This document shows, one piece after another, positions 18,499-60,417 of a stretch of 64,000 nucleotides of DNA. Origin of the DNA: Chiloscyllium plagiosum (lineage: Eukaryota); assembly GCF_004010195.1 (NCBI RefSeq), contig NC_057749.1, positions 7,611,936 through 7,675,935 on the forward strand, given 5' to 3'. The notes under the pieces are model-generated. The model was not told the origin of the DNA. It was given only the letters and a program-made list of their open reading frames with translations, and did not search any database. Every line of letters begins with the position of its first letter. The stretch's first letter is position 1. A program made the position numbers and the translations under genes.

Positions 18499-18706
18499 GA
18501 TGTGGAGATACCAGTGCTGGACTGGGCTGGGCAAAGTCAGAAGTCACCTGACACCAGGTTATAGTCCAACAATTCTGTATGAAATCACAAATTTTTGGAA
18601 TGCTATTCCTTTGTCAGGTGACCTGATGAAGGAGCAACGGTCTGAGAGCTTGTGGTTTCAAATAGAACTGTTGGGTTATAACCTGGTTTTGTCTGACTCA
18701 TGACTT
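18499..18706. mobile_element. Penelope-derived fold-back mini-element
   Basis: Inverted arms aagtcacctgacaccaggttatagtccaaca / tgttgggttataacctggttttgtctgact around a centre containing ctgatgaaggagc. Confidence 0.7.
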
Positions 18707-18799
18707 GGATCAGATGTGGCTGGTAGAACTCTCTCTCTTGTGGAGTCAATGAGATAGATTACAAAGTACACTGTGGAAACCCCCATAAGCAGTGAAGAG

Positions 18800-19345
18800 G
18801 TGCTTCTGCCACTGAGAATGATGAACAGAAAAATGAAGAGAGCATTTAAGAAAGAATTTTAACAAAGACTACATTAGCCATCTATTGAAGTGAAGTACAA
18901 TTGTCACTGTGCAGACAAAAGTCATTGCAGAAATCAAAAGGAATGGCGAGGGACAAATTTAATCTCCCCTTGAGATCTGCACTTTTGAGCTTTGAGATTC
19001 TGTTTCCCCCCCAGCTACTTTTGTTCATCCCTAATATCTGTGTCAAACCTTCTGTACTCTGTCTGTCTTAGTGATGAATACATGTGTGTATTTGGTACTT
19101 TGAAAGAGGTTTAGTTAAAGTCATATAGTAGTAGATTAGGGATCTTTTCTTCTTCCTACCATTTGTTCAGGTATGTTACAATAAAGAGAGTTATTTTCCA
19201 TCAATGATGAAACCTGATGTGAATTTATCCTGATCAAGCAAGTAAAATAGGTCATCTTGGTGGTCTCATTGGGATTTTAAACACGTGATGGCTCTTAGAA
19301 CAGTGGGGCCCTTATTGGCACATATGTCCTAATTGAGTTGTGACA
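18800..19345 (+). mobile_element. Possible degraded LTR
   Basis: aataaa at ~19180 and a terminus ...gttgtgaca resembling an LTR end; no 5' TG end or TSD identified. Confidence 0.3.
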
Positions 19346-19906
19346 TGTGTAATGCAGAATGAATGGAGGATAACACGCACGACTGATGAATTTGCTTCCC
19401 GATGCCTGGACGAAGAGAGTTCATCCTGCTCTTTTTGGCTTATGGCAGGGCCTTGTCTGATCTCTCAGTGGTTCTCAGCTTGGCCTCTTGGCAGCTCTCA
19501 GCTTGGTGGATCTCAGTGGTACATTGGCTGGATTCTTGGCAGTTCATGGGGAGTCTAGGGTCGGCTCTCCCAGCAATACATTGGTTGGATTCTTAGTGGC
19601 TCATGGCAGTGTCTAGACTCGGCATGCGATTAGGTTCTACTGAGGTATGTTCCCGAGGCATTGGGCAGGATCGGAGAGGCAGCAGTGATGGCATCTGCAG
19701 CGGCAGTGAGAACAGACAGCTGAGGTCTCCCCGAAGAGTGAGATAAGTGAAGGACTCAAAGACTGTTGATCATTTAACTTATTCCTTTATTTTCCTAGTT
19801 TAAACAACAAAAGACGTTAAATGTTAACTATTACCTTATTTTTCTACTATTCTATGAAATAATGCTTAACTTTTAAATTCTTGTTTCTCTTGCAAATTTG
19901 TACCTA

Positions 19907-20877
19907 CAGGTCGTTCTGCTATAACACATGTTTTGTCCACATGAGTTCACCGCAATGTGATTGACAAATTGTCATGAAGCTAAAGCCGTGGTCTGTACCT
20001 TTATGAGAGAGTTGAATGCTGTTCTGAACTGAGAGCTTACAAGCACCTGTCATATAATTAACTAGCAGTCTCAGTGTGTACTGGAAAATTGAAAACATGT
20101 AACATTTAGCTGTGAAATAGATAGCTGAGTTGGTTGATGTTTTGACGACAATTCAGTTATCACTTAAACCAATCAGTTTAAATTTTGCCCCAGGATACTA
20201 AAACACAATCGACTTTGAATTTACTGTTTTTGGCAACATTGAACCAATCAGATGATCCAATGTTGGGGATATAACAAAAGGCAGGCAGTTTGAAAGTCAG
20301 ACAGAGTAACTGCCATTGAAACACTCTCGATCAAAAAGGTACCTTTTCATAGAAACATATTTGTAATATAAGGAAAGACGACAACCCAGGGAGATCTTCA
20401 GTTGGAAGAAGAAAGACACTGATGACAGCCATTGAATCGTTTTGAAATTAAGTTGATGCAAGTTTAATAAGTGTTTTATTGGAACAATATAGTGTTATAG
20501 AATTGGAGGCAAATAATAAGCAGCTAAAAGAAAGTGGGGCTGAGAGTTTTGAATAGTTGTTTAATATTCACTCTTAGTGTTAAATAATAAATTGATATAA
20601 TTTTCTTTAAATAATGGAATTTGGAATTTCTCTGTCACTCATTTTAACAGATTATGAGGTGAACTGAGCTTTTCTGGGTGTTTGGTTTAAATTAACAGAG
20701 GGGTTCATCACTGTGTCATTACAGGGACATGGTTTCTAAGGTGTGAACATTTAAAACAGGTGTTGGCTATAATGCAATTACATCAATAACACTTTAAGCA
20801 CTGTTTCTAAGGTATGGTTTTTCTAAGAAACGGGGTTGCACAAAAATGTACCCATCGTGTTATTGTAGAACTGACTA
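19907..20877. mobile_element. Tc1/mariner-superfamily (Tigger/pogo-like) MITE
   Basis: TA|CAGGTCGTTCTGCTATAACAC ... GTGTTATTGTAGAACTGACTA|TA: imperfect 21-bp TIRs flanked by TA. Confidence 0.75.
19970..20723 (+). mobile_element. Solo LTR (754 bp) inserted in the MITE
   Basis: TGTCATGA...TCATTACA termini, several CCAAT boxes (20168-20261), TATA-like gatataa at ~20268, aataaa at ~20586; no clear TSD. Confidence 0.7.
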
Positions 20878-21402
20878 TATGCTCTTGGACTATACCTTGG
20901 TACCCAAGATGTTGCCATGTGTGGCAACATTATACACTTTTCTCTGTACTCCTGTACTGGAGTACATGTGACAATTAAATAAAAAAAAAATCGAATATAC
21001 AATGGCCATGGCAGGCATATACAGTTGGGGATCAGTTCAACTACAGCTGTAGTTGAATTGGTGGCAGTCTTATCTGTCAGTCACAACAGTCTGGGCTCAA
21101 GTCCCACTCCAAAAGTTTAGCGTAAAACTTAAGACTGACACTGCTGTGATGCTGGAGAGAGCTATCCTTTGGGTGAGAGAAAACAGAGGTCCCATGTCCC
21201 TCTTGGTTAGATCTCAAGGAAACTATAGCATGTCTTCAAAAGAACAACAGGCAGATTACCATCAGTGCTCTGACTGGATTCATCACTCAAGCCAACATCT
21301 CAAAAACAAACTACATGGTCATTATCACACTGCTGCTCACAAGAGCTCAAACTGGCCACTATATTGCCTATGTTACAACAATGGATAAGCTTCAAAGAGT
21401 AA

Positions 21403-21825
21403 ATTAGTTTTAAAGAAGGGTCACTGGACCCAAAACATTAGCTCTACTTTCTCTCCACAGATTAGATTAGATTCCCTACAGTGTGGAAACAGGCCCTTCG
21501 GCCCAACCAGTCCACACCGACCCTCTGAAGAGTAAGTCACCTAGACCCATTTCCCTCTGACTGATGCACCTAGCACTATGGGCAACTTAGCATTGCTAAT
21601 TCACCTGACCTGCACGTCTTTGGACTGTGAGAGGAAACCAGAGCACTCGGAGGAAACCCATGCAGATATGGGGAGAATGTCTGTGTGGAGTTGCACAGTC
21701 GCCCGAGGCTGGAATCAAACCTGGGACCCTGATGCTGTGAGGTAGCAGTGCTAACTACTGAGACACCGTACCACCCCTCACAGTGCTGCCAGCTCTGCTG
21801 AGATTTTCCAGCAATTTCTGTCTTT
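21403..21825 (+). mobile_element. Penelope-derived tail mini-element with a 14-bp TSD, containing an HE1
   Basis: TSD gcttcaaagagtaa at 21389-21402 and 21826-21839; body aagaagggtcactggacccaaaacatt...tgctgccagctctgctgag. Confidence 0.75.
21459..21776 (-). mobile_element. HE1 SINE
   Basis: Full-length reverse-complement copy with (GATTA)n tail. Confidence 0.92.
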
Positions 21826-23029
21826 GCTTCAAAGAGTAATTCATTGATTGTAAAATGTTTGGAGATATCCAGTAGCTGTGAAGTGTGCGATATTGATGCA
21901 TGTCTTTCTTCAACAGCATTGGTTTAGCTGCAAGATCTTTCACTCAGGATTGAGACACAATCACTGAGGGTAGTAGCTTAATGTTGTATCAAAGCCATAA
22001 AGCTAGCAGGGGTTTGGAATATAACAAGTCAGTGGCTTGAGAAGACAGTAAAGATGACTGGAAGAATTAATCGGGGAAAAAATTAGTTTTAAAGAAAATC
22101 AAGCCCATGTAGTATATCTGGAATAGGTTGGAACTGCGGCACCTTGTTATCACAGCTCTTTCTACAGCCTTGTCTGAAAAAAAAAACCTGAACACTATTC
22201 TTTCAGCTCCGGTTTTAATTGAGATGTGTGGAGTTTTTCGAAATCTAATCTCAAGCATTTCTTCACATGGGAGAAAGGAAAAGCTCCCAACTGAGAGAAT
22301 CTGTGTCTTTAGATTCTTCTCGTGGTGGTTTTTTTAATTAACCGTTGAATTAAAAAAATGAATAAAGGGATTGTCATAAATTCCTATGCAGCACGACAAT
22401 TTTGTGCTCAGCACAATTTGTGAGGAGCAGGGCAACTCTTTCACATCTTAAGGGGACATTAAGAAATCATATTAAGGAGGCATCTATTGATAAGTGAAAT
22501 TGAAAGGTAACCAAACGTGCCGTCTTTATTTAATCTGGTGGAGATTTTAACAGACACTCGTGCTGGTCTGAATTTCCTTATTTTACTACTTTAACAAAAA
22601 TCAAGACAGACAGGAGCAAGTTCATTCACAGATTGGGCAAGGTCTGGAGGAAGACTGGGATATAGAGGTAACAATAGCACAGAAGAGGCAACTCCGACCC
22701 ATCAAGTGCACGTGAACTTTCTGCAGACCAATCTCACCAGTCCCATTTCCTCCCGCACTCCCTGTAGCCCTGGACATTTATTTCCCTCAGGTTCCCCAAC
22801 TACCTTCCTTTAAAAATCATTGATTGGTTCACTTCTACCATCCCAGAGGGCAATATGTTCCAGGTCATTATCAAAATAGGTTCCTCTTTGCACTTATCAA
22901 CGGTATTTAATTCTCCCTCTTGCAGTTCCACATTTATCCTCAGCCAAGAATTTGACATCTGATCACTAACCAAAGGTTCCTAATAGATAAAATGTTAAAA
23001 GGTAAAGTCACCATAATCCTACTGGACCA

Positions 23030-23295
23030 TTGTATCAAGTATGTAAAAAAGCCCAAACCACATTACTTGAGGGAAGTAGGAATTCTGCTTTCAGTATTTC
23101 AGGGGGCCCACTCAATAATTGGGCTCCGCCGACACCTCACCTAAACATTTGGATGGTCCACATACAGACTTGTATACACAAATGATTCAGTCTGATCTGT
23201 ATATGTAAAGAAATGCAATGTACACGTATGAATAGCATCACCAATTGTATAGATAAAAATATTATGAATAAAGTATATTTTTGAAATAAAAAAAA
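23030..23295 (+). mobile_element. L1/Tx1-like LINE 3' UTR with poly-A, inside a family D SINE (pieces at ~23000-23030 and 23555-23640)
   Basis: Ends aataaagtatatttttgaaataaaaaaaa; the flanks match the two ends of 13128-13392. Confidence 0.5.
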
Positions 23296-23994
23296 TTGGC
23301 TGACCATTCATTTTGGAATTTCCTCCCTCAGGATAAGATTGAGGAATTGAAGTAGAGCTTTTCATAATAACTTCAATCAGTGAAAGTTGTGAATGCGGAT
23401 ACAGTAACAATGTTTAAAAGACATGTGGATAAGAATGGTTTGAAGGGGTATCAGCCAAATGCAGGCAGGTGGACTGAATTAAGTTTGGGAACATGGTCAG
23501 CACAGACTGGCTAGACTGAAGGGTCTGCTTCCATACTGTGTGACTTGATGACAATATAGGGAATTGAACCCATGCTGTTAGATCACTCTATGTCACAAAC
23601 CAGCCATTCAGTCAACTGAGCTAACCAATCCCTCCAGTCAGACAGTCGATATATGGAAAGCTAGAACCCCTCAAAAACACTGTCAAACTATGAAACCGTA
23701 GTTTAGGAGTGCCTCTGGCAAGAGGCATGGAACATGCAGAATAGCTTCATCGAAACATACACAAAAAATGACCGTCTTCCAGGAATTTAACAAAGAAACA
23801 TTCTCTCTGATCACTAAAGACAAATGAAGCTTGGAAATATTTAGCCATTTCCAATCTCCACCATTCAGTCTTGAGCAAACGTACAGTAACCACAACAGTT
23901 ACTATAAAAACAATAATTGGCCAATTTAGCACAAACTTAGGCATGTAACTAGCAAGGTCATGATGCTAGACTGATGGGTATGTCTCAAGTAGCT

Positions 23995-27495: not shown

Positions 27496-29188
27496 GCGAC
27501 TTTAGTTAGTTCTGTGTTCAGAAATGCAACTCCAAAACACAAAAGTGTCTTGACATTTAGAAAGAATTCTTTTTTGGTTTTCAGGGGCACCTTTATGTTC
27601 TGACCAACCCCTTTATTAGATTAAAGTCACGTGGTAACAAAAAGCTCCTCTATTTATATTAACATATGAAGTATTTGACTCTCTCAGAAGTAGAATTAAA
27701 TCAGTCTCCTCAATTATTATCAAATCTGCATTCAAGTTAAAGCTACATCACAGAAGGAAATCATTAACTTCCTAGACTCTGCAGTTTTTAAATTGTCACA
27801 GGATAACAAGTATAAGGTTAGCAAAAGTACAGGCATAAGGGTAGCTAGAGATTTTGTTTTTGGCCTCCTAAAATATTTGGCACACATTTCTATGCACAAA
27901 GACAATCAACCTAAACATTCCTTCTATAGACTGTGAAGTCACAGAAAATGCACAAAGCTAGAAGTCTATGACTAGGCAGTTCTCATCCTTTTTAGTGTAA
28001 CTTGAATTTAAATCTGGAATTAAGGTCTACTATTAATAGTGTTCATTACAATGTAACAAATACATATACTAGGTCCTGGATCTACACAGCCTTAAGCTTG
28101 AGATTTTACATTAATTTTCAAGGAAATCATTGTTTCAGCGTGGAGATAGCCTGGCTCCCAGTTAGCTGAGCGTTCCTTTGCTGACAGGTCTGAAACCTTT
28201 CCCTCTCATGGACAGCTTCCCTCTACCTTCACCCACTTCTCACACTTCGCAGCAGACGGGTGAAAGGTTATCCGTGGTATGCAAGAATATGACGTATTTA
28301 GTTGAAACTTTATTGCTGGAACAGCACAGCAGGTCAGGCAGCATCCAGGGAACAGGTGATTCGACATTTCGGGCACAGGCCCTTCTTCAGGAATGAGCAG
28401 AGAGTGTTCAGCAGGAGAAGATAAAAGGTAGGGAGGAGGGACTTGGAGGAGGGGCGTTGGAAATGTGATAGGTGGAAAGAGGTCAAGGTGAGGGTGATAG
28501 GTCAGAGTAGGATGGAGGCGGAGAGGTCAAGAAGAAGACTGCAGGTCAGGAAGGCGGTGCCGGGCTGGAGGGATTCGGCTGAGACAAGGGGAGGGGGGAT
28601 GAAGAAACTGGTGAAGTCCAAGTTCATCCCCTGTGGTTGGAGGGTTCCCAGTAGGAAGATAAGACGCTCCTCCTCCGACCGTCGCGTTCTTGTGGTTTGG
28701 CGGTGGATGAGTCCAATGACCTGCATATCCTCGGTGGAGTAGGAGGGGGAGTTGAAATGCTGTGCTACAGGGTGATTGGGTTGATCTGGGCCACCCGGAC
28801 GAACCAACCCAACCACCCTGTAACACTGCCCCCTCCCACTCCACCGAGGATATGCAGGTCATTGGACTCATCCACCGCCAAACCACAACAACCCGACGGT
28901 CGGAGGAGGAGCGTCTTATCTTCCGACTGGGAACCCTCCAACCGCAGGGGATGAACTTGGACTTCACCAGTTTCTTCATCCCCCCTCCCCCCACCTTGTC
29001 TCAGCCGAATCCCTCCAGCCCAGCACCGCCTTCCTGACCTGCAGTCTTCTTCTTGACCTCTCCGCCTCCACCCTACTCCGACCTATCACCCTCACCTTGA
29101 CCTCTTTCCACCTATCACATTTCCAACGCCCCTCCTCCAAGTCCCTCCTCCCTACCCTTTACCTTCTCCTGCTGAACACTCTCTGCTC

Positions 29189-29224
29189 ATTCCTGAAGAA
29201 GGGCCTGTGCCCGAAACGTCGAAT
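29189..29224 (+). ncRNA. Minimal type I hammerhead ribozyme motif in the PLE tail
   Basis: ATTC (stem I) - CTGAAGA - A - GGGC ctgt GCCC (stem II) - GAAA - C GTC - GAAT (stem I'); stem III reduced to the palindrome ACGT. Confidence 0.8.
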
Positions 29225-29290
29225 CTCCTGTTCCCTGGATGCTGCCTGACCTGCTGTGCTGTTCCAGCAATAAAGTTTCAACTTTGATAT

Positions 29291-30214
29291 NNNNNNNNNN
29301 NNNNNNNNNNNNNNNNNNNNNNNNNNNNNNNNNNNNNNNNNNNNNNNNNNNNNNNNNNNNNNNNNNNNNNNNNNNNNNNNNNNNNNNNNNNNNNNNNNNN
29401 NNNNNNNNNNNNNNNNNNNNNNNNNNNNNNNNNNNNNNNNNNNNNNNNNNNNNNNNNNNNNNNNNNNNNNNNNNNNNNNNNNNNNNNNNNNNNNNNNNNN
29501 NNNNNNNNNNNNNNNNNNNNNNNNNNNNNNNNNNNNNNNNNNNNNNNNNNNNNNNNNNNNNNNNNNNNNNNNNNNNNNNNNNNNNNNNNNNNNNNNNNNN
29601 NNNNNNNNNNNNNNNNNNNNNNNNNNNNNNNNNNNNNNNNNNNNNNNNNNNNNNNNNNNNNNNNNNNNNNNNNNNNNNNNNNNNNNNNNNNNNNNNNNNN
29701 NNNNNNNNNNNNNNNNNNNNNNNNNNNNNNNNNNNNNNNNNNNNNNNNNNNNNNNNNNNNNNNNNNNNNNNNNNNNNNNNNNNNNNNNNNNNNNNNNNNN
29801 NNNNNNNNNNNNNNNNNNNNNNNNNNNNNNNNNNNNNNNNNNNNNNNNNNNNNNNNNNNNNNNNNNNNNNNNNNNNNNNNNNNNNNNNNNNNNNNNNNNN
29901 NNNNNNNNNNNNNNNNNNNNNNNNNNNNNNNNNNNNNNNNNNNNNNNNNNNNNNNNNNNNNNNNNNNNNNNNNNNNNNNNNNNNNNNNNNNNNNNNNNNN
30001 NNNNNNNNNNNNNNNNNNNNNNNNNNNNNNNNNNNNNNNNNNNNNNNNNNNNNNNNNNNNNNNNNNNNNNNNNNNNNNNNNNNNNNNNNNNNNNNNNNNN
30101 NNNNNNNNNNNNNNNNNNNNNNNNNNNNNNNNNNNNNNNNNNNNNNNNNNNNNNNNNNNNNNNNNNNNNNNNNNNNNNNNNNNNNNNNNNNNNNNNNNNN
30201 NNNNNNNNNNNNNN
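29291..30214. other. Assembly gap (924 N)
   Basis: Run of n. Confidence 1.
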
Positions 30215-30679
30215 TTCCTGATGAAGGGCTTTTGCCCGAAACATTGATTTTCCTGTTCCTCAGATGCTGCTTGACCTGCTGTGCTTTTCCAGCACCAATC
30301 TGATCTAAATAAACCATTGTCAGGTTGGGCTGTAGACCATGGAGGGATGAATGCTAAAAGAAGGGCCTGTGCCCGAAAGTCGAATCTCCTGTTCCCTGGA
30401 TGCTGCCTGACCTGCTGTGCTGTTCCAGCAATAAAGTTTCAACTTTGATCTCCAGCATCTGCAGACCTCACTTTCTCCTATGACGTATTTAGATCAGCTA
30501 TGGTCCCCCAGAAGCGTGTATTTCCCTATGTGCCTTTTGCTCATCCACACCCGACAGCTTCCCTTCACAACTCCTTCCTGCCCTCCACCTTGTTGTTGCC
30601 TCCTTCTCTCAACCCTCGCAAAGTGAGCTCCATCCCAGCCCCCCAGCTCCTCACCTCTGGCCGATGACTCCCACCGCCT

Positions 30680-33425: not shown

Positions 33426-33444
33426 GTTTCTTAAAATTATTAAG

Positions 33445-35170
33445 GCAAAATATTGCTAATCAAAAACTAAATCAAGCAGAACACTAGGAACTCAGCAGAT
33501 CAGGCAACACCTGTGGAGAGAGAAACAGAGTTAATGTTTTGGGTCTGGTGACCCTTCCTGAGAACTGATGGTAACTAGGCAAATGTCAGTTTAAATGCAG
33601 AAGTTAGGGTGGGGGGAGAGTAAATTATAGGTGGGGATAGAGCCCAAAGAGAGAGAAGAACAGTTGGACAGATGAAGGAGTGAATAACAATCTGGCTGGG
33701 AGGGTGAGTAGCTGTTAATGGAAACCATTGGTAGCTAACAATAGGTAGCATGCAATGGCAGACTATGTGATAACAAGGCCTGGTGTGTGGGGTAGGGGGC
33801 TAACATCTGGGAGAGTTCAGACCCTAACATTATTGAACTCGATATTGAGTCTGGAGAGCCGCAGTGTCACCAAGTAGAAAATGAGGGGTTGTTCTTCCAA
33901 CTTCAGCTGGGCTTCACTGGAGCACTGCAGCAAGCCTGAGACAGAGATGTTGACCAGGGAACAGGGTGGGGTGTTGAAGTGAAAGGCAGCTGGAAGCTCA
34001 GGGTCTTCTTTTGCAGACAGAACTTGGATGTCCTGCAAAGCTGTCATCCAGTCCACGTTTTGTTTCCCCACTGTAGAGGAGACCACACTCTGAACAGCGA
34101 ATGCAGGCGACGAGATTGCGAGAAGTGCAGATGAAGCACTGCTTCACGTGGAAGGTGTGTTTGGGCCCTTGGATACGGAGGAGGGAGGAGGGAGGAGGTA
34201 GATGGGCTGGCGTTACACCTTCGGCAGTTGCAGGGGAAGGTGTTGTGGGGCTGTTGGGAGCGAATGAAGAGTGGACCATGGTGTTTCAAAGGGAACAGTC
34301 CCTGAGGAAGGTGGAAAAGGGAGGGAAGGGGAAAGTTTCTCTGGAGGTGGCGGAAATGGTGGCTGATGATCTTCTAGATGTGGATGCTGGTGGAATGGTG
34401 GGTAAGGACAATGGGAACCCTATAGCTGTTGCAGGAGGGAGGAGAGGAGGGGAGTGTGAAAGCGCAGGAGATGGGTCAGACCTAGTTGAAGGTCCTGTTG
34501 ACAATGGTGCAGGGAAATCCTTGGTTGAGGAAGAAGGTGGACATTGCGAAGGCTCCTTTATCAAAGTTGTCTTCAAATTAACATATGCAGCGGAGACAAA
34601 GGAGCTGGGAGAATGGAATGGAGTCTTTACAGGAAGCAGGATACATATTCGAGGTAGCTATGGGAGTCCAGTCAGTGACCAGTCTATACCCAGAAATGGA
34701 AACAGAGATTCGAGGAAGGAAAAGGGGTGAGTCAGAGATAGACCAGATGAAAATGAGGCTAAGGTGGAAATTGAAAGCAAAGTTGATGAGCTTTTCCAAT
34801 TCTGGACAAGAGAGGGAAGCACTACCAATGATTAGATTAAAATAGATTAGATTTAGATTACATTACAGTGGGGAAACAGGCCCTTCAGCCCAACAAGTCC
34901 ACACCGACCCACCGAAGCGTAACCCACCCATACCCTTACATTTACCCCTTACCTAACAATACGGGCAATTTAGCATGGCCAATTCACCTGACCTGCACAT
35001 TTTTGGACTGTGGGAGGAAACCCACGCAGACACGGGGAGAACATGCAAACTCCACACAGTCAGTCGGCTGAGGCGGGAATTGAACCTGGGTCTATGGCGC
35101 TGTGAGGCAGCAGTGCTAACCACTGAGGAGGAAGAGTTGTGGGAATGGGCCAGAATAGGAGTGGAACAAT
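33445..35170 (-). mobile_element. Penelope-like retroelement 3' half (RT thumb, linker, GIY-YIG endonuclease, tail); degraded, with an HE1 inserted
   Basis: Frameshifted pieces LINFAFNFHLSLIFIWSIS, CKDSIPFSQLLCLRCIC, FICTSRNLVACIRCSECGLLYSGETKR, HFNTPPCS...LEEQPLIFYL..L...LNIEF. Confidence 0.9.
34830..35126 (-). mobile_element. HE1 SINE (young subfamily)
   Basis: Long (GATTA)n tail, V-domain and head. Confidence 0.92.
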
Positions 35171-40985: not shown

Positions 40986-40989
40986 TTGG

Positions 40990-41295: not shown

Positions 41296-42271
41296 TCTTT
41301 GAAATCATTTCCCCGTGTCTACATTTTGGATTCCTAATTAGTTATTTTACAGTGAAACGAGTTTGAACAGAAGATATTTTTAGCTGAAACTTGCCTAAAA
41401 GGAAATGAGTCTTCCCCACGCAGGCTCCCATGCTCAGTTGTACATCGTTAGGTAGATGAGCAGTAATTACAGCACAGAATGGGAATTTCCCTCAGAAACT
41501 GAAATAATGGACAATTCATTAGCCGTGTCTGGTTATTCAGAGAGACAACTTTGCATCTGGGTGCTGGATACCTTCTTTTGATTTGTGCAGGCTCTGTGAA
41601 AGAGGTTTTGCAAGTCACTCAGGCAGCCGAGGGCTGTGGAGGGAGTTCAGTGCTGCTTTGTACAAGAGGATAGCACATGGAGAGATTGGTCTTTTATTGA
41701 GTTTGACAATCCATTAAAGTGGGCAAACATTGGTGTGTTCTTGTATTTTAGAGTAAGCTAGAACTGTGTGTCAAGGTTCCCATCAGCACGCTCAGACATG
41801 TGATATGTTGCATCTGCGGTGTGCGGTTCAAGACAAAATGACCCTTCACTGTTACACTCCTAAGACCGAGCACCACAAATCACTTGCATTTAAAAAGCAA
41901 CTTTAATCTGGTCAAAGTTTCACATGGTCCTTCATAGCATCATCAAGCAAAATTTGACAGTGTTAACTGGATCCAAGTTTTCAGCTGTGTTAGAAACAAG
42001 ACTACTTCTGGATCGAGCATTTATCAATTAAAACACAGTCTCAAATTTCTCTTCCCCCAGTCCTAGCAATTTATCAATTAACCTTTCTCTCTATTTTTTA
42101 GAACTCAATTCTTCGGTAAATTAACTGAGTTATGTGTTAAAGTGGAATGCACAGGCATTGGAAGCAGTCCAGAGAATAAGAGTGCTGAAGAACAGTCATA
42201 CTGGACTCCCACTGTTAACTCTGTTTCCTTCTCCACAGGGACACAAGACCAAGTAAGTTCCTCTAGCACTT

Positions 42272-47769: not shown

Positions 47770-48370
47770 TAACATTACTTAGCAAGTGAGCCAGCAGTCT
47801 GGACTGATGATTTGGTGACAGGAGTTCAAATCTTACCACTACAACAACTGAGGAGTTTTAATCCAATTTATGAAACAAAAGGACAGTTAATTTAAACAAA
47901 ATATGAACAGCAATGGTCACCACAAACTCCATCTGGTTTATTAATCAGATGTTTTGTTCATCCTTACCCGGCCTGTCCTAAATATGAGAGCACAATGTAG
48001 GAGCAAATTACTGCAGATGTTGCATTCTGTACCTATTACATATAGGACAGAAAACGACAAATGCTGGAGATCACAGTAAGTCAGACAGCATCCATGGAGA
48101 GAGAGCAAGCTAACATTTTGATTCTAGATGTCTCTAATGTAGAACCATCTAGACTTGAATTGTTAGCTTGCTCTCTCTCCGTGGATGCTGTCTGACCCAT
48201 TGTGATCCCCAGCATTTGTTGTTTACTTTCCTATATGTAATTCCAGATCCAAAAAAAATGCTGTTAACTTCCAGTTGCCTTCTGGATCGGCCAAGCATGC
48301 TGTTCACTCATACCCAAGGATGATTCAGGATTGATAATACATGTTACACTTCCCACATTCCATGAATTAA
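47770..48370 (+). mobile_element. tRNA-head SINE family B, interrupted by a PLE fold-back (~47990-48228)
   Basis: catccttacccggcc before the insertion and cctatatgtaattccagatcc after it. Confidence 0.6.
48051..48224. repeat. ~80-bp inverted repeat (PLE tail fold-back) with a 15-bp spacer
   Basis: Arms 48051-48130 and 48146-48224. Confidence 0.9.
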
Positions 48371-49470: not shown

Positions 49471-50604
49471 TTTTGTAATGGACCAGGCCAAATCTCTTAA
49501 AATATATTAAGAAGATAGTGTAGATCCTAACTTTTTCTTATATTAAAAGGCAAATGTAAGGCATTGTGTTCCGGATGCAATTTCCCACTGCATTCCCATT
49601 AATGCTATGAATGGTAGATATCCAAGCCCGAGATGAGACCACATGATCATGGATCACCATGGATCAAAATATCAAAATTTGAGGAAGATAGTGGCATCCT
49701 GGTAATGTCATTGAGCAAATCATCCTGAAGCCCAGGCCAATGTTCTTGGGACACTGAATTCAAATTTCACCATGGTGAAATGTGAACTCAGTAAAAATCT
49801 GGAATACAGTGCTGGCATAAGAGTGACCATGTAACCTCAAGGGGTCACTTGATCTAAAACGTCAGCTCTGATTTCTCTTCACAGATGCTGCTAGACCTGC
49901 TGAGCTTTTCTCGCAGATTCTGATTAACAACATCTGCATTTCTTTCAGTTTTGTTTTTCCAAAAGATATCAAGATAGCTTTGTCATTCAATAAAACAGTT
50001 TGGATACATTTAAAAAAAAAAATAAGTGGAGTTGTCAAGTCAACTAATCCTAAATCTTTCAAAGAACATGCAAGAATGTTATGAACACTGTCACACCTTG
50101 CTATCCCTTCACTTTATCAAATGAGGTAAAATGTATGATGGAAAGAAAATAGGAAATAATTTGAAGGACTTTTACATCAATACAATATAAATTTCATGAC
50201 AGGAAAAATTACACTCAGGCTATTGGTTATTTAGGCAATTCATTAAAGCAACCAAGTGAAGGGAAGAGAAGTAAATATTCAAGTACAGAAAAGATTATTG
50301 CATCTGTTCTTTCATTGATGCTGAATTCAAACAGAATAATTAGACAGCTATACTTATTTATGTTTTGTGATCAGGAAAATATTTTCTCACAACCAATCAT
50401 TAACAGCACCATATCAATTGGGGATTTCTTACAAACATCTTCAAAAATTCTTCCATTCAAAATGCAGGCTCCCAATCTTCTCTTATAACTGTGTAAGCAC
50501 TGGCAAACTTTTCTGAAAGAAAATCTGCCATCCTTGCTTGGTTTCAGCCTCATGGTGGCCCCTGGCCAATGGAGTGTGGTTGACTCTATTGCCTAATTAA
50601 GTGG

Positions 50605-54564: not shown

Positions 54565-55202
54565 AATTTGTGTCACAAGTAGACAGGGTGGTTGAGAAGG
54601 CATTGAGAGTGCTTGCCTTCATTGCTCAGATCTTTTGAGTCCAGGAATTGGGACGTCATGTTGAGGTTGTACAGGATGTTGGTGAGGCCTCTTCTGCAGT
54701 ACTGTGTTCTGGAGGTTGCCTTGTTGTAGGAAGTCTATTATTAAGCTGGAGAGGGTTATAGTCATGAATGAAGTGTTTGAGATACAAAAATAGACTGGAA
54801 AGACTGGGATTTTTTCACTGGAGTGGAGGAGGTTGAGGGGTGACTTTATAGATGATTATAAAATTATGAGGAGGACAGATAAGATGAATGACAAAGATCT
54901 TTTCCTAGGGTGGAGGAGTTCAAAACTAGAGGGCAAGTTTCTAAGATGCGAGGAGAAAGATTCATAAAGGAGATGAGGGACAGATTCTTTTAAAACAGTG
55001 CGGCTCTTGTGTGGATTAAACTGACAGAAATTAGTGGATGCAGGTACAGTCACAATGTTTAAAAGACACTTAGATAAGTTCATGAATAGGACAGGTTTGG
55101 AGGGATATGGGCCAAACATAGGCAGGTGGGACTAGTTTAGTTTGGGAACCTGTTTGGCATTGACTGACAGGACCAAAGGGTTGGTTTCTTTGCTGTATAA
55201 CT
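54565..55202 (+). mobile_element. CR1/HER1 LINE 3' portion
   Basis: Reverse-complement homolog of 52476-53150. Confidence 0.88.
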
Positions 55203-56954
55203 GTTTTTTTAAGAGTCCAAGGGTGAAACGAGTCTTTATAAACAATCACATGCTGACAGAACAACAGTCCAGACCAGAGAAAGGCAACCAGCCAAAGCAA
55301 CTTTCGTTCTGGGCCTTTAATTCTCCTGGCATAAGATGGTCACATTGGAACAGTCCAGGTGACAATGCATACAACAATAACATCTGAAAGCGCATCACAC
55401 TCTTTAACAGCCAGCTTATGAATACCTGAAGTGAAATTTCAATTTAGCAAGACAGAGCCTTTTTAAATGAATTAACTCACCCAAATTTGTGGTGCTGCTA
55501 AATCCATAGAGATCACGCATTTGGTTCGTTCCTTTTGGAGAAAGAGTTGAGAGGCCTGTCCTTTCAGCGTTCCAGTTGAGGGACGACTAAAAGATCTTCT
55601 GTTGGCTTTTTTTGATAACTGTAACATTATGGCACTTTTCACGACAATTACATTTTATGTCAGAACAACAGAATTCCCCAATTTTTCCTGAGTACTGAGC
55701 CATTAAATTAAATTTAGGTCATTTGTAAACTACCAAGACAAATCCAAATGCAGTTATCATCAAGTGTTTCCATTTTGCTTGGACACTGGGGTAGGAAATG
55801 ATAAAGAGTGTCTTTCCCTTGAATGGTGGAAGTGCAGCTGGTTTGGATTATGCAGTCAAATGATAGCTCAGTTAACTGGATTGTTTGCATGATTGCAATC
55901 AGCTTTGATTATATTGAAGGCGCAACTGAGGCAAATTGTCTTGTTTCTCCTTCCATTAGACCCTGGAGAGTTTTCTCCACCAACACCAGCCATCACATCT
56001 ACCTTGACGTCTGTGACTTCAGGGTCCAGTGCTTTTGGAAAATTGGCTCTTAAACCTAAATACAATCATTTGAATGTGCCAATTTCCTTTTTTAAAATAA
56101 CTAGCATCACAAAAACCTAAACCTATTTCACCTCCAGCCGTTCTAATATTGCTGCTACTTAAATAGATTTTGTTTAACATAAACTCGAGAGAACAGAAAC
56201 AGTCTGAATGTGTGATGGCTTCAGTTTTAGTGGAAAGTGTTTGAAATTCTGTCCTTGAAAGAGCTTTACATGCAAGTCATCAATTCTGCTGCTGTTACAG
56301 TAAATCCAAGAAATATGGTGTAGCAGCAACATGTGGGAATAAATCTTCACCTGCATAAGTAAAGAATGGAAGAAATGTAGGGTTGCAAGTAGGAGGCATT
56401 GCCTGAATTCCAAATATATTCTCCTGGAGTGAAAAGTGTCGGGGAGCTATCAAAGGAAGTTATCCCATGGTGAGATGGAAAGGAATACTGATTTTGATTC
56501 TGTGCCAGGTCACAAACCCAACTACCCTTTATTTTCTGGAGATGGTGAGTTAAGGCCTTCGTGGAAGATGAATAAAGATGACTATTGACTACAGCCAAAA
56601 TGGTGAGCAGACTGACAGTTACATGAGGTGTGAAATTTTATATCAGAGTAACAAGGTGTGGAAACAAATGCCTCCCTAAAGTTACTGCTGTCAATTTTGA
56701 GTTTTAAAATCTTCTAGGCAAAGATGGGTTTAGTGCCACTGGCCCAGCAAATAGTGAGACTTTATTTTGGGATGTTTTATTGTCACAGTTTGCACAGAAT
56801 TTTCTGTGGATTTTAGGAATATTTTCACTCATGCTAAATGGGGGTAGCTGTCAGTACAAGACTTTTCACTTGTAACTCTCACACATTGTGGTAAAGTTGA
56901 TCAGATTAGAACTTGGTTTTGTTATACTAATATAGCAGGCAAGTTTATTTAGGT

Positions 56955-57320
56955 GACTACAAAGAATTATGAACACAGGCCAGTTCATCACAAAAACTAG
57001 CCTCCCATCCATTGACTCTGTTTATACTTCCCACTGTCTTGGGAAAGCAATCAAAGTAATCAAAGACCACTCCCACCCTAGTTATTTGAAAACACGTACC
57101 AACAGATTCAAGGACAGCTTCTTCTCTGCTGTTATCAGACCTTTGAACAGACATCTCAAAAGTTAGTTTTGATCTCCCTCTCTGCAACTGTAACACTGTA
57201 TTCTGCACTCTGTTCTGCTACTCTGATGCACTTTGTATTGTACGATCTGTCCGGATAGCATACAAAACAACACTTTTCACTATATCTCAGTACATGTGGC
57301 AACAATAAATCAAATTCAAA
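56955..57320 (+). mobile_element. Rex1/Babar-type LINE 3' end
   Basis: LPSIDSVYTSHCLGKA..IKDHSHP..KTRTNRFKDSFFSAVIRPLN; tail tacatgtggcaacaataaatcaaattcaaa. Confidence 0.8.
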
Positions 57321-57495
57321 CTCATTGTCTCTGCCATCATTTTATTGTCACAGTTATCCACCTGAACCACCCAGATTCACTGTCACCAATCTTTCTTGCT
57401 GTTATTAGTCTGGGCTACTAATACCGTCTAGATAGTCTGAATCTTGATGAACAGGTTTATTATGTCTTAATCAGGAGATAGTTACATTATATCCA

Positions 57496-57742
57496 GGGGG
57501 CCCCTCTTGTGGTGCAGTGATAGTGTCCCTACCCCTGAACCAAGACATCCAGGTTCAAGCCTCATCTGCTCCATAGGTGTGTAATAACATCTCTGAATAG
57601 CTTGTTTAGAAAAAAATAGGTTAAGCATAAAATAAAGCTTTTATCAAAGGGCTCTTGTAGTGCAGTAGTAGTGTTCCTCCCTCTGAGCTAGAAGACTTGG
57701 GTTCAAGTCCCACATGCCTGAATAGGTTGATTAGAAAATACA
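57496..57742 (+). mobile_element. Two adjacent short family C SINEs
   Basis: 57496-57615 and 57648-57742, each ctcttgt(g/a)gtgcagt(g/a)..agtgt..ct...ggttcaag...aatag.ttg.ttagaaaa. Confidence 0.75.
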
Positions 57743-57947
57743 CAGTTACATTATGTCTCGGTTACATAATGGTCTCTTATGAAGCATTAGGCTCAGCTTA
57801 CTCTTAAGTTCACATTACAGTGACAAAAACATTCTTGCACCACATTGGTAACAAATCCAGCATTAAAGACTGGTGAGATCATCCCAGGAATGATCCCTTG
57901 CATCCTAATTGGTAGATCTTAGTTACAATATCAGTTAAGCTAGGGAA

Positions 57948-58192
57948 CTACGGGGCAACTTTTTCACACAGAGGGTGGTGCGTGTATAGAATGAGCTGCC
58001 AGAAGAAATGGTGGAGGCTGGTACAACTATATTTATAAGGCATCTGGATGGGTATTTGAATAGGAAGGGTTTAGAGGGATATGGGCCAAGTGCTGGCAAA
58101 TGGGACTACATTTGGTTAGGATATCTGGTCAGCATGGACAAGTTGGACCAAAGAGTCTGTTTCCATGCTGTACATCTCTATGACTCTATGAC
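57948..58192 (+). mobile_element. CR1/HER1 LINE 3' end
   Basis: FFTQRVVRV.NELPEE followed by a UTR ending ctctatgactctatga. Confidence 0.88.
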
Positions 58193-58254
58193 TGCCTTAA
58201 AGAACATTTAAGGACTTATCTTTTTTATTCTTAATAGGGTCTAATCATATTGAG

Positions 58255-59037
58255 TTTTTTTTTATTCACGTGGGCTTTGCTGGGTGGGTCAGCAATTATT
58301 TTGGCCGTTGTACCCTTGAGAAGATGGTGTGGAATAATCTTCTGGGGCAGCTGCAATCCATGTGTTTTAGGTAAGCTCACAATGTCATTTAAGGAGGGAG
58401 TTCCATGATTTTGACCCATTGAGACTGAAGGATCAACAATACATTAGATTAGATTACATTACATTACAGTGTGGAAACAGGCCCTTCGGCCCAACAAGTC
58501 CACACCGACCCGCCGAAGCGCAACCCACCCATATCCCTGACATTTACCCCTTACCTAACACTAAGGGCAATTTAGCATGTCCAATTCACCTAACCTGCAC
58601 ATCTTTGGACTGTGGCGGGAATTGAACCCGGGTCTCCGGCGCTGTGAGGCAGCAGTGCTAACCACTGCGCCACCGTGCCGCCCACATATTCCAAGTCAAG
58701 ATGATGAGTGGTTTGGAGAGGAGCTGGTGGTGTTCCCATGTGTTTGCTGCTTTTGTCCTTCTAGATAGAAATGGTTGTGCGTTTAGAAGGTGCTCTGAGG
58801 ATTTTGTTTGTGGATGTGGTACAATTAAGCAGATTTTTTTTTGTCCTGGATGGCATCAAGCTTCTTGAGTATTGTTGGAGCTGCGAAATTCTAGCACATT
58901 TTCGACTTGTCCATAGTAGATGATTGAGGCTTTGGGGAGTCAAATGATAATTTACTTACTGCAGGATTCCTTGCCTCTGATCTGCCCTTGCCATCACATG
59001 ATGAGTCCAGTTTAGTTTCGGGTCAATGGTAACCCCA
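58255..59037 (-). mobile_element. CR1/L2-group LINE 3' portion interrupted by HE1
   Basis: Homologous to 37680-38300. Confidence 0.75.
58445..58683 (-). mobile_element. HE1 SINE (young) with most of the V-domain deleted
   Basis: tttggactgtgg is joined directly to cgggaattgaaccc; CpGs retained. Confidence 0.92.
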
Positions 59038-59238
59038 CATGAGTCACTGTTCTATCCAACTTCAAATACAAACTCAAGTGTGACCAGTTGTAGTATGAGG
59101 AAAGCATTGAGCTTAGTGGAGGTTTAAAAGGTTCTACTGAGCAAAGCTATGCACATAACATGGCAAGAGAGGATGTCTTACGTACCTGGAGGTTTACAGA
59201 TCCAGGCTCCAATTCAAAGTGATCTGATGTCAATATGG

Positions 59239-59486
59239 TTCTGGATCAGTGGTGCTGGAAGAGCACAGCAGTTCAGGCAGCATCCAATGAGCAACGAAAT
59301 CGATGTTTCGGGCAAAAGCCCTTCATCAGGAATAAAGGCAGTGAGCCTGAAGCGTGGAGAGATAAACTAGGGGTCCACATTGATGCCCTGGGGTTGAAGT
59401 GTTCCAAGGCGGAAGATGAGGCGTTCTTCCTCCAGGCGTCTGGTGGTGAGGGAGCGGCGGTGAAGGAGGCCCAGGACCTCCATGTC
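59239..59486 (-). mobile_element. Short PLE 3' insertion (GIY-YIG C-terminus plus hammerhead-bearing tail)
   Basis: Minus strand encodes DMEVLGLLHRRSLTTRRLEEERLIFRLGTLQPQGINVD; probable TSD atgtca(a/c)tatgg at 59227-59238 and 59482-59493. Confidence 0.88.
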
Positions 59487-59667
59487 ACTATGGAATAATT
59501 CTGTTTGCACATGCTCAGTAACTATGCTTACAGTAAAGTTATAATTTTATTTACAGTGCAACATTCCATTTATCAAGTAAATTCAGTGCTCTACTTGGTT
59601 GAAATTAAACTTTCCTGGTAATAATACTTCAGGTACTACAGCTTCCGAATGTGATCAGATATTTTTT

Positions 59668-59850
59668 TAAAATCACACAACACCAGGTTATAATCAAACA
59701 GGTTTATTTGGAAGTACAAGCTTTCAGAGCGCTGCTCCGTTGTCAGCACTTTGACAAAGGGGCAGCGCTCTGAAAGCTAGTGCTTCCAATTAAACCTGTT
59801 GGACTAAACCTGTTTGTGCACCCCAGTCCAACACCAGCACCTTCACATCA
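59668..59850. mobile_element. PLE fold-back mini-element
   Basis: Arms aacaggtttatttggaagtacaagctttcagagcgctgctcc / ggggcagcgctctgaaagctagtgcttccaattaaacctgtt. Confidence 0.8.
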
Positions 59851-59949
59851 TCTGATATTTTATCATCTTTAAAGATTATATTCCGCAGTAATGGCAGTTC
59901 TGCATTTCGCTTTTGTACCGAAGGATTTTCCCTGTGTTTCTTCATTGTA

Positions 59950-60135
59950 ATTGAATTGAATTTGCTTTATTGTCACATGTACTCAAATGAGTACAGTGAA
60001 AGGTTAGTAAGTTGCCACCTACAGTGCAATCTTAGGTACAAAGGTACCTAGGGACAGCTTCTTCAGTTACAAGATTAGTTTGTGTAACAATGTCACCAAC
60101 ACATGGCATCATCTTAGGTACGAATACCTAGGGTA
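59950..60135 (-). mobile_element. Rex1-tail element 3' end
   Basis: tttattgtcacatgtactc is the reverse complement of the tail at 20960-20980. Confidence 0.55.
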
Positions 60136-60137
60136 CC

Positions 60138-60272
60138 TACCTTCCTGATGAAGAGCTCCGACCCGAAATGTCAATTTTCCTGCTCCTCGGATGCTGCCTG
60201 ACCCGCTGTACTTTTCCAGCAACACATTTTCAACTCTGATCTCCAGCATCTGCAGGTCTCTCTGTCTCCACA
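60138..60272 (+). mobile_element. PLE tail mini-element starting at its hammerhead, with a ~15-bp TSD
   Basis: ttcCTGATGAagagctccgacccGAAAtgtc...; flanks gaatacctagggtac (60122-60136) and gaatacctaggtac (60273-60286). Confidence 0.78.
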
Positions 60273-60291
60273 GAATACCTAGGTACAATCC

Positions 60292-60417
60292 TTGTTGTGG
60301 TTCTGTTCGCCGAGCTGGGAATTTGTGTTGCAGCCGTTTCGTTCCCTGTCCAGGTGACATCCTCAGTGCTTGGGAGCAATGAGCACCCGAGCTACAAATC
60401 TTTTCACAAACTTTGAA
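60292..60417 (-). mobile_element. Tail of a different PLE family with a hammerhead remnant
   Basis: Minus strand reads gcaCTGAGGAtgtcacctggacagggaacGAAAcggctgc. Confidence 0.65.

Follow-up and report, generated by a model that had tools for sequence, protein, structure and literature searches.

Short copies of Penelope-like elements bounded by the hammerhead in the genome of Chiloscyllium plagiosum

Relation to known Penelope-like systems

Canonical insertion units of endonuclease-positive Penelope-like elements (PLEs) were reportedly set out by Evgen'ev and Arkhipova in 2005. As outlined by Craig et al. (2021, PMC8557442), canonical PLE units show heavy 5′ truncation, an inverted 5′-truncated copy directly upstream and a 30-40-bp 'tail' extension at one end only; the function of the PLE hammerhead is called unclear in the same outline. 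The elements of the shark Chiloscyllium plagiosum analysed here have in common with them an ORF for reverse transcriptase (RT) and, at its C terminus, a GIY-YIG domain, 5′ truncation, an inverted partner, a tail extension and a hammerhead in the terminal repeat. In that outline, however, only a high degree of 5′ truncation is described for canonical PLEs, whereas here a large share of the copies ends at one discrete point at the 5′ edge of the hammerhead. The kind of element is known; the regularity of the ends at the hammerhead edge is under-described.

Transposition of Poseidon of Anolis carolinensis (PAc) has been carried out in vitro (Frangieh et al. 2024, PMC11167929). The length of the PAc cDNA is set by the RNA 5′ end through the hammerhead, ribozyme mutants are without effect, and the hammerhead is dispensable for insertion in vitro. 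The shark copies appear to resemble PAc in that two adjacent internal RT start sites, ~110-120 nt after the hammerhead, define the genomic 3′ ends, and in that both target strands are cut and extended, with cDNA reaching the RNA 5′ end and no RNA ends at the cut site. The PAc ORF starts inside the hammerhead, whereas the shark ORF ends ~160 nt before it, and genomic copies beginning at the hammerhead are a class unreported for PAc in the main text of that study.

Minimal hammerheads of metazoan PLEs, as presented by Cervera and De la Pena (2014, PMC4209133), have the boxes CUGANGA and GAAA, one additional base ahead of helix II, a helix I of 4-5 bp and a palindromic helix III stub (ACGU or AGCU), and the shark hammerheads are alike in these features. 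In both cases the motifs are mostly single and dispersed, and opposite-strand pairs lie 100-700 bp apart. The single motifs are ascribed in that presentation to 'truncated PLEs', with no end mapping given there, whereas the ends were mapped here. It also proposes processing by self-cleavage, but no trace of this was found in the ends of the shark copies.

In D. virilis Penelope, so far as it is described by Schostak et al. (2008, PMC2377424) and in PMC4209133, the start site and an internal, TATA-less promoter lie upstream of the hammerhead, with 46 nt and a 75-nt intron between the start and helix I. The shark elements are similar in that their terminal repeat would hold a start and core promoter a short way 5′ of the hammerhead; they differ in that the putative start adjoins helix I and in that TATA boxes are present in families B and C.

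Non-LTR retrozymes, to the extent covered in PMC7229834 and in the preprint of Li et al. (2026), are short non-coding units with type I hammerheads that are kin to PLE terminal repeats and are thought to use PLE enzymes, and the shark units are like them in this. The retrozymes depicted by Cervera and de la Pena (2020, PMC7229834) form tandem arrays with the unit set by the cut sites, and circular RNA, whereas the shark copies are single, flanked by target-site duplications (TSDs) or folded back, and their ends are not at the cut sites.

Copies in the window and their parent elements

The C. plagiosum genome (3.56 Gb) was sampled, and the window, the 64-kb stretch of DNA analysed here, was inspected in addition. 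Position 0 is the first C of the CUGANGA core and all offsets are counted from it. The samples of families A, B and C were small and ranked by similarity to one query each; the queries were the short copies themselves, and BLAST alignments could not run beyond the query ends. For family C, the first 20 of 39 scored matches (the query's own place excluded) were taken as 260-nt pieces, and family B was handled in the same way. In the window, CTGANGA occurred 45 times against 43.7 expected and was thus not enriched, and Rfam gave 0 matches at the gathering score and 18 at E<=10, none of them a hammerhead; hammerhead recognition therefore rests on family homology. Many window copies have a decayed hammerhead. 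Well-kept copies of families A, B, C and D have the minimal PLE hammerhead described above, with a G-C closing pair and a palindromic 15.2-16.2 stub.

Long copies carry an ORF with RVT_1 and GIY-YIG domains upstream of the tail and are thus endonuclease-positive PLEs. The 893-aa open frame of copy L049 scored 33 bits for RVT_1 (cut-off 29.6) and 21.2 bits for GIY-YIG, just below the cut-off of 22.6 (E 3.5e-4). L056, inspected for a partial tandem copy (pLTR) ahead of a full-length unit, has two tails in the same orientation 3135 nt apart; the stretch after the first tail reads N, as do other parts of the long elements.

All the mini-element sites listed in the original prediction are present in the window, and its solo tails do start a few nt 5′ of the core. 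In family A, the solo mini copy at 60137..60272 (+) has its core at 60145-60151, family homology from 60142 and a 5′ end ~3-8 nt before the core, and lies within a TSD of 14/15 nt (60122-60136 / 60273-60286). A composite family A insertion, 28302-30479, has the TSD 28289-28301 / 30480-30492. Its long inverted arm (28302..28790, -) has the short 3′ end outward and passes through the hammerhead into GIY-YIG C-terminal coding sequence. The long direct arm (28800..29290, +; core 29193) has ~390 nt of 3′ UTR and ORF end upstream of the core, shares 95% identity with the tail of L049, the copy with the open ORF, and is cut short by an N run. A tail at 30215..30300 (+) begins 3 nt before the core, immediately after the N run, its upstream part being unreadable, and a mini copy at 30351..30479 (+), which starts ~4 nt before a decayed core and has the long 3′ end, makes the right end of the composite.

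The family C solo at 21403 (+) begins 7 nt ahead of a decayed core, and a later SINE (21461-21783) splits it into a 5′ part, 21403..21460, and a 3′ part, 21784..21826; its TSD is of 13 nt (21390-21402 / 21827-21839). The family C solo at 42183..42265 (+) starts 2-3 nt before the core at 42185 and is followed by nested SINEs. The core of the family C copy at 49836..49940 (+), predicted to be truncated, is defective, being decayed or partly deleted.

Fold-backs were expected to invert immediately 5′ of the core or, in one case, within stem II. This holds for the family B fold-back at 18499-18705, which pivots at -2/-2: its inverted arm (18499..18620, -) reaches the long 3′ end, with its 5′ end 2 nt before the core position, and its direct arm (18621..18705, +; CTGATGA core 18623-18629) ends near the short 3′ end, with a probable TSD, judged by eye, at ~18487-18498 / 18706-18718. 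It also holds for the family D fold-back at 48035..48245, in which arms 48035-48136 and 48140-48241 are 86% complementary and the pivot is inside helix II. In the family B fold-back at ~59667..59851, whose inverted arm stops at the short 3′ end and whose direct arm stops at the long one, the pivot is at 0/+2, inside the core box and not 5′ of it; its TSD is at ~59655-59665 / 59851-59861.

The window also holds copies passing through the hammerhead that the original prediction lacked: the family A stretch 28302-29290, a family C read-through copy at 33511..33640 (-) with a TATA-like box 29 nt before a CAGTT start, and a 5′-truncated family A read-through copy at 59249..59490 (-) that reaches the GIY-YIG coding end ~165 nt upstream of the core.

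The 5′ boundary at the hammerhead

In families A, B and C, both the 5′ ends and the fold-back pivots cluster at helix I's outer base pair. Helix I is made by the four bases with which the short copies begin, and these covary from family to family (AUUC/GAAU, AGUU/AACU and AGCU/AGCU). Among the similarity-ranked samples, 26/29 family A loci had a solo or main arm whose 5′ end was within -10..+7, and 13/20 copies of family B (within -12..0) and 13/20 of family C were at the boundary, as predicted. Copies passing the boundary were scattered or long, running into the 3′ UTR and the RT/GIY-YIG ORF. The sole class-blind estimate comes from ~31 family A insertions met incidentally in flanks and classified by hand; 11 began at -10..+2, another 2 lay within the ribozyme, 1 began at -19, and the remaining 17 started further upstream or were long. 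Word depth in contigs of run X15 went from 3.9M through 1.09M and 0.38M to 0.35M across the boundary, stepwise and not gradually. The boundary is far commoner than chance in the genome samples.

The use of short-copy queries, with alignments bounded by the query ends, could have given an appearance of phasing to copies that arose by ordinary random truncation of the 5′ side, or to solo repeats that remained after the two terminal repeats recombined, so that the boundary would reflect only alignment or ascertainment. However, the flanks were inspected directly and the TSDs abut the boundary, fold-back arms adjoin with gaps of 0-17 nt in 11/14 family A pairs, word depth falls about tenfold at the boundary and is then flat, and recombination is unable to make fold-backs. 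Such an origin is extremely improbable.

The ribozyme cut site is at +27/+28 in family A and +29/+30 in family C, ~30 nt 3′ of the boundary. None of 9 internally truncated family A units or arms started at +25..+30, and no copy end was mapped to the cut site in the samples of families A and C. Hammerhead cleavage was rejected as the source of the ends, since the cut site lies downstream of the boundary and has no ends.

As the boundary is ~30 nt 5′ of the cut site, RT had copied the entire ribozyme. Stalling or template switching of RT at the folded ribozyme, which the original prediction offered as one of two readings, would suit the second fold-back arms and few solos that start near helix II (+8..+26 in family C; +9, +15 and +21 in family A; inside helix II in family D). 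But the main peak is at the 5′ edge, whereas a block by structure would be expected on the 3′ side. Moreover, the length of the PAc product follows the template 5′ end across the hammerhead, and the C3G and G8C mutants leave its size unchanged (PMC11167929). This reading is very unlikely.

Promoter-like motifs are present upstream of the boundary and at it. In majority bases, the long copies have a T/A-rich box whose first T is 31-32 nt before the modal start: TTATCT in family A (33 copies, columns >=90% conserved), TATAAAT in B (12 copies) and TATAAAA in C (8 copies). An initiator-like CA is found at the start, in TCA-TTC (A), CCA-CAA (B) and TCA-GTT (C). In the young family B subfamily, with copies 96-98% identical, the starts of solos and forward arms range over -12..0, lying 28-40 nt 3′ of the first T in the TATA box. 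The motifs suggest that the boundary would correspond to a transcription start. The box of family A is no more than TATA-like and may be conserved for some other role in the 3′ UTR. As no AG precedes the boundary in A, B or C, a splice acceptor there, of the kind seen in D. virilis, was rejected.

The RNA 5′ end might instead be set after transcription, a longer PLE RNA being trimmed 5′ to 3′ as far as the border of the folded hammerhead, or that of PLE protein bound at the hammerhead and tail, and the protected stub reverse transcribed. The boundary is indeed the outermost base pair of helix I in families A, C and D. The PAc protein binds RNA within 172 nt after the hammerhead and aids its folding (PMC11167929). 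The starts are fuzzy over a few nt, and the polyA RNA reads have no pile-up of starts, both of which would fit trimming. It leaves unexplained, however, the conserved TATAAAT and TATAAAA at textbook distance from the boundary in families B and C, and we consider it unlikely.

In the raw reads of run X20 (a single-cell polyA library, ~2% of the run), no RNA 5′ ends were seen at the boundary and no place passed the test for many molecules beginning or ending, which counts against a transcription start there. Of the placed X20 reads, 88% continue into unlike sequence, as expected of short copies carried passively in other transcripts. In favour of the boundary, 87 RNA reads of X20 break exactly at -4. 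Run X21 had 0 reads placed on the elements.

3′ ends, fold-backs and the origin of the short units

Most solo copies have TSDs. Among 25 family A solos, 18 have a flank match that was reached by <=2 of 50 shuffles and 10 have flank matches >=15 nt with <=1 mismatch; the 3′ copy of the TSD is at +122..+128 or at +88..+93. Two alternative 3′ ends ~35 nt apart are used in families A and B, one by each unit: they are at ~+89 and +122..+128 in A, and in B the units are of 76 nt and of ~110-120 nt. Together with the RVT_1 and GIY-YIG ORF upstream in long copies, the TSDs and the paired 3′ ends bear out the view that these are PLE tails moved by PLE machinery.

An inverted 5′-truncated partner copy was found at 12/29 loci of family A, 6/20 of C and 8/20 of B, and in the window at 18499, 28302, 48035 and 59667; ~40-60% of the hammerhead-bounded copies are head-to-head fold-backs pivoting at helix I. 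In the inverted pairs of family A, the partner arm ends at 84-100 in 10/14, the short end being at ~92, and the main arm at 114-131. One short and one long end within one TSD were seen in the two window fold-backs of family B, the composite 28302-30479, L091 and L095. The two 3′ ends and the fold-back geometry match the two RT start sites of PAc and the extension of both strands (PMC11167929), and by this analogy RT initiation and two-strand priming may work in the shark as in PAc. Snap-back self-priming of the fold-backs was judged less likely than two-strand priming, as the distal ends of the partner arms cluster at the short 3′ end (6/14 at 93-94).

The short units are best read as dead-on-arrival by-products of autonomous RT/GIY-YIG PLEs, neither a separate element nor products of ribozyme cleavage. 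We give slightly better than even chances to the explanation that they are by-product cDNAs of transcripts that begin at a promoter in the pLTR, next to the hammerhead, and that are reverse transcribed from the known internal RT start sites with one target strand or both. The pLTR of each family would carry a pol II-type promoter directly 5′ of the minimal hammerhead, and transcription would start at the 5′ strand of helix I or a few nt ahead of it. With RT starting at internal sites only ~90 and ~125 nt downstream, the cDNA of such a transcript would therefore be 95-130 nt long when it runs off the RNA 5′ end. Priming by one nicked target strand would give a solo mini copy with a TSD. If both strands prime, two cDNAs would come together head to head at the 5′ end of the RNA and make a fold-back, which would thus have a short 3′ end on one side and a long one on the other. 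The family B fold-back arm L082, which starts ~35-40 nt before the core and outside the cluster, counts against this model. Second fold-back arms often start inside the ribozyme (+8..+26 in C, +9..+60 in A), and the model accounts for them only as incomplete cDNAs.

If the RNA begins at helix I, the ribozyme is the 5′-terminal structure of the transcript, and the very short helix I of 'minimal' hammerheads follows from the place of the RNA start. The huge numbers of single hammerheads in the genomes of fish, amphibians and reptiles would then be run-off cDNAs of a promoter-proximal RNA and not random truncations. The young and abundant family B makes the model of transcription start and two-strand priming testable. 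A quite unlikely extension is that the minimal hammerhead is mainly a 5′-terminal pairing module rather than a processing ribozyme: its palindromic helix III stub (ACGU or AGCU) would pair two RNAs head to head in a dimeric RT/endonuclease particle, and the cDNAs from both target strands would meet at the paired 5′ ends. If true, it would account for the high share of fold-backs pivoting at helix I and would give the PLE hammerhead a role like that of a retroviral dimer-initiation site.

The other reading in the original prediction was a dedicated non-autonomous lineage, SINE-like or retrozyme-like, that begins with the hammerhead, has its own master copies and borrows the PLE RT and GIY-YIG. 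A preprint (10.64898/2026.07.22.740005) proposes that non-LTR retrozymes derive from PLE terminal repeats, and the very high copy numbers (at least 1142 candidates in A, at least 2556 in C and at least 1730 in B at first look) would favour such elements. So would the first pooled sample of family C, where 0/17 copies were long by eye, one of which (window 33511) later proved long. Kinship was assessed by p-distance nearest neighbours and shuffles of the short/long class. In the family C sample, which was unbiased for class, the nearest neighbour was of the same class in 10/21, a value reached by 3715/5000 shuffles; mean distances in the short/long comparison were 0.122/0.127/0.129, and no diagnostic column separating short from long copies, and hence no shared diagnostic mutation of the short ones, was found. 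In family A, a long copy is the nearest relative of 17/48 short copies; the same-class value of 63/86, reached by 0/2000 shuffles, is confounded, because the two classes were drawn with different queries. Since short and long copies are interleaved and diagnostic mutations are lacking, nothing points to a distinct master of SINE type. The short copies are, moreover, without the upstream T/A box.

A TTTT-type run stops pol III. Most family A copies have a run of four T's ~32 nt in, which speaks against dedicated elements, and pol III transcription was judged unlikely on this ground. Head-to-tail tandem arrays of the retrozyme kind were not seen among the solo copies, which are dispersed singly with TSDs; some local clusters of copies are present at L016, L039 and L055. 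Dedicated elements are accordingly a doubtful explanation, with only a small chance of being right. From the original interpretation the PLE origin and the hammerhead peak were upheld, and the separate lineage and the RT stall were not.

For annotation, the short units are to be filed as PLE by-products, not as SINEs, and the fold-backs not as microRNA precursors; the best Rfam matches at E<=10 were sub-threshold microRNA-like ones on three fold-backs.

Hammerhead-bearing tails and the phasing of their 5′ ends

The window is rich in tRNA-derived SINEs and short non-coding repeats. No hammerhead was found among the Rfam matches across the window, either at the gathering score or at E ≤ 10, and the bare word CTGANGA was not enriched (45 observed, 43.7 expected). 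The ribozyme is seen in the family alignments as CUGANGA, one extra base, a G-C-closed helix II of 4-5 bp, GAAA, a palindromic stub (ACGU or AGCU) and a helix I of 3-4 bp. This is the minimal hammerhead of Penelope-like elements (PLEs) as described in the accessible part of PMC4209133. By tail homology, the window members were assigned to family A (60142, 30351, 28302-29290, 59249), B (18499, 59667), C (21403, 42183, 49836, 33511) and D (48035). The top sub-threshold Rfam matches were microRNA precursor models on three fold-backs (59709-59788, 18540-18699 and 48091-48185; 44.6, 41.1 and 38.5 bits, respectively), each under gathering. MicroRNA genes at these fold-backs were rejected, the matches being hairpin look-alikes.

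Copies were collected from the genome assembly (3.56 Gb, 101,977 contigs), and 5′ ends were numbered from the first C of the CUGANGA core. With a family A query (60130-60270), the best 40 of 1142 candidates were scored and 30 loci returned, leaving 29 after exclusion of the window's own locus. BLAST comparison with long references, together with flank reading, divided these into 14 solo tails, 12 inverted pairs and 3 copies running on into the ORF region (L013, L014 and L029 among the fetched loci). In this similarity-ranked sample, the solo or main arm of all 26 non-long copies begins within -10 to +7. For family C, a short-copy query was used, the best 40 of 2556 candidates were scored, and 260-nt pieces of the first 20 non-self matches were examined. 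Among these were 7 long copies, 7 solos, all of which begin at -3 to -5, and 6 fold-backs, two of which are identical and represent one duplicated locus. In a first pool of family B, 13 of about 22 copies extend upstream past the hammerhead by at least 150-780 nt. With a short query from a young family B subfamily (L078-L097), the best 40 of 1730 candidates were scored and the first 20 of 39 non-self matches examined, yielding 7 long copies, 8 fold-backs and 5 solos; solos and forward arms start at -12 to 0. All 40 scored copies were 96-98% identical to the 122-nt query, and this similarity points to a very recent PLE burst. The original observation that copies end or pivot at the hammerhead was confirmed in families A (26 of 29 loci), B and C, in samples that are small and ranked by similarity.

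As similarity ranking might favour a single subfamily, all tails were catalogued in 290,280 non-N bases of the window and fetched loci, giving 151 clusters (A 104, B 27, C 17, D 3). Incidental family A insertions were counted by hand, leaving out search targets, partner arms, the duplicated locus A002, the N-preceded A066 and the weak partial matches A047 and A068. Among the resulting ~31 insertions, drawn from source loci many of which had been picked because of long PLEs, 11 begin at -10 to +2, 2 within the ribozyme, 1 at -19 and 17 farther upstream or are long. Several 5′-truncated family A copies passing the hammerhead appear to have their ends close to the ORF stop codon, between -127 and -191 (A021, A042, A049, A054, A055, A074, A084). 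These may represent a second weak cluster or mere loss of alignable similarity.

Sequencing runs were compared with the fetched locus L049 (core C at 3324, minus strand). In run X15, summed contig word depth across the boundary dropped from 3.9M to 1.09M, 0.38M and 0.35M and was flat afterwards. In X20, a break at precisely 3328 (-4) is shared by 87 raw RNA reads, whose continuations are heterogeneous (agreement 0.4). The X20 raw RNA reads showed no read-start pile-up and 88% run on into unlike sequence; a polyA single-cell library is ill suited to detecting an RNA of 130 nt, yet the outcome counts as negative.

Cleavage, stalling and lineage as sources of the boundary

The ribozyme cut site lies at +27/+28 in family A and +29/+30 in family C. 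It was rejected as the boundary, as of the 9 family A units or arms that are truncated internally, not one begins at +25 to +30. Family C partner arms begin at +8 to +26. Stalling or template switching of the reverse transcriptase (RT) at the folded ribozyme had been put forward to account for the boundary. A stall is unlikely, since the RT arrives from the 3′ side and has copied the whole ribozyme before reaching the boundary, and since in assays of PAc, the Anolis element, product length tracks the template 5′ end across the hammerhead and is left unchanged by ribozyme mutants (PMC11167929).

The other proposal was that short copies are dedicated, SINE- or retrozyme-like units. In family C, where one query retrieved both classes, the nearest neighbour was of the same class for 10 of 21 copies, a value reached by 3715 of 5000 shuffles. 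Mean distances were 0.122 between long copies, 0.127 between short copies and 0.129 between the two classes, and the check for diagnostic mutations in short copies gave 0 diagnostic columns in the family C alignment. In family A, a long copy is the nearest relative of 17 of 48 short copies, across at least four subfamilies. A separate short-copy lineage is therefore unlikely. The first interpretation is upheld in part: the identification of the units as PLE tails stands, the interleaving of copies speaks against the separate lineage, and the position of the boundary at the 5′ edge speaks against the RT stall. The element is of a known kind, with an under-described, mechanistically informative regularity.

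The family A hammerhead at 29193 has ~190 nt of 3′ UTR upstream, preceded by the last part of a GIY-YIG coding sequence. Searching the genome at the protein level with part of an RT returned 42,891 first-look candidates. Among the copies fetched, L049 contains an 893-aa open frame, which scored 33 bits against RVT_1 (cut-off 29.6) and 21.2 bits, under the cut-off of 22.6, against GIY-YIG; the tail of L049 and the window family A copy share 95% identity. Judged from these matches, family A tails belong to canonical endonuclease-positive PLEs. At the start of the 893-aa frame, a 48-aa N-terminal stretch is repeated in tandem four to five times (L049:2841-3400, element orientation). Most long copies contain N stretches. 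The N run 29291-30214, which masks the middle of the composite insertion 28302-30479, stops exactly 3 nt 5′ of the CTGATGA core, and N runs stop at the same element boundary at other loci too.

Target site duplications and fold-back geometry

Target site duplications (TSDs) were sought in 25 family A solos by comparing the 32 nt immediately 5′ of the boundary with +80 to +160, using 50 shuffles. In 18 of 25 solos, no more than 2 of the 50 shuffles reached the best match, and 10 of 25 had a match of at least 15 nt with no more than one mismatch. The 3′ TSD copy starts at +122 to +128 or at +88 to +93. Several of these TSDs finish with CA or CAT immediately 5′ of TTC-CTGA, a microhomology to the first bases of the element. 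Within the window, TSDs were found at the family A solo 60142 (14/15 nt), the family C copy at 21403 (13 nt, after removing a later SINE insertion), the family A composite 28302-30479 (13 nt) and the family B fold-back at 59667 (~11 nt). The SINE within the family C copy (21461-21783) is tRNA-derived, lies in reverse orientation and has its own 8-nt duplication of the CCACAG region. Its family has at least 11 window copies, and the PLE copy L049 sits inside a member of it, with a TSD of 12 nt.

Each family has two 3′ ends, spaced ~35 nt apart. Fourteen inverted pairs of family A were measured in the coordinates of the 60142 copy, where the short end falls at ~92. Their main arms end at 114-131; of the partner arms, 10 end at 84-100 (6 of them at 93-94) and 2 at 127-128. 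Pairs combining a short and a long end within a single TSD were found at 18499, 59667, 28302-30479, L091 and L095. In PAc, reverse transcription begins at two adjacent internal sites ~111-118 nt beyond the hammerhead region, which define the genomic 'tail', and both target strands are cut and extended (PMC11167929, Frangieh et al.). The 3′-end anatomy of the shark fold-backs agrees with that report. Two cDNAs primed outward-in, one per target strand, would give exactly the observed head-to-head geometry. At L027, two family A copies on opposite strands (C1:64235548 and 64236414) have directly upstream flanks matching at 44/45 nt, and this common flank indicates that the locus itself was duplicated in inverted orientation.

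A candidate promoter beside the hammerhead

Long copies carry core-promoter-like sequence just upstream of the boundary. Their majority bases show a T/A box: TTATCT in family A (a block conserved to at least 90% over 33 copies), TATAAAT in B (from 12 copies) and TATAAAA in C (from 8 copies). The first T of the box precedes the modal or most upstream start by 31-32 nt. CA is present at the start itself in long copies of all three. Starts in the young family B subfamily lie 28-40 nt past the first T of the TATA box. According to the accessible parts of PMC2377424 and PMC4209133, D. virilis Penelope has its start site within the terminal repeat, a short way 5′ of the hammerhead, at a distance of 46 nt plus a 75-nt intron, whose 3′ end adjoins helix I. 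A start shortly before the hammerhead was mapped in D. virilis (PMC2377424); for the shark families we infer it. The mini copies are most likely run-off cDNAs of transcripts starting at the pLTR promoter beside the hammerhead: cDNA copied from RT start sites 90-125 nt downstream would run off at the RNA 5′ end. The mini copies are without the promoter, in keeping with the interleaving of short and long copies. An RNA end produced by trimming up to the hammerhead, whether folded or bound by protein, would agree with most of the data but leaves the TATA boxes unexplained. With a promoter start, the first four RNA bases would form helix I (AUUC/GAAU, AGUU/AACU, AGCU/AGCU), which would account for the very short helix I of 'minimal' hammerheads.

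The components are treated in PMC4209133, PMC11167929, PMC8557442, PMC2377424, PMC7229834 and a 2026 preprint (10.64898/2026.07.22.740005), whose accessible parts already describe 5′ truncation, inverted copies, tail extension, the pLTR hammerhead and promoter, and retrozymes as PLE derivatives. Those parts contained no statement of copy ends or pivots phased at helix I, or of the promoter reading. At L039 (C44:3201887-3205453) and L055 (C43:9170000-9179000), family B units are clustered in the same orientation at a spacing of 140-270 nt, each containing the upstream TATA region, in a tandem, retrozyme-like layout.
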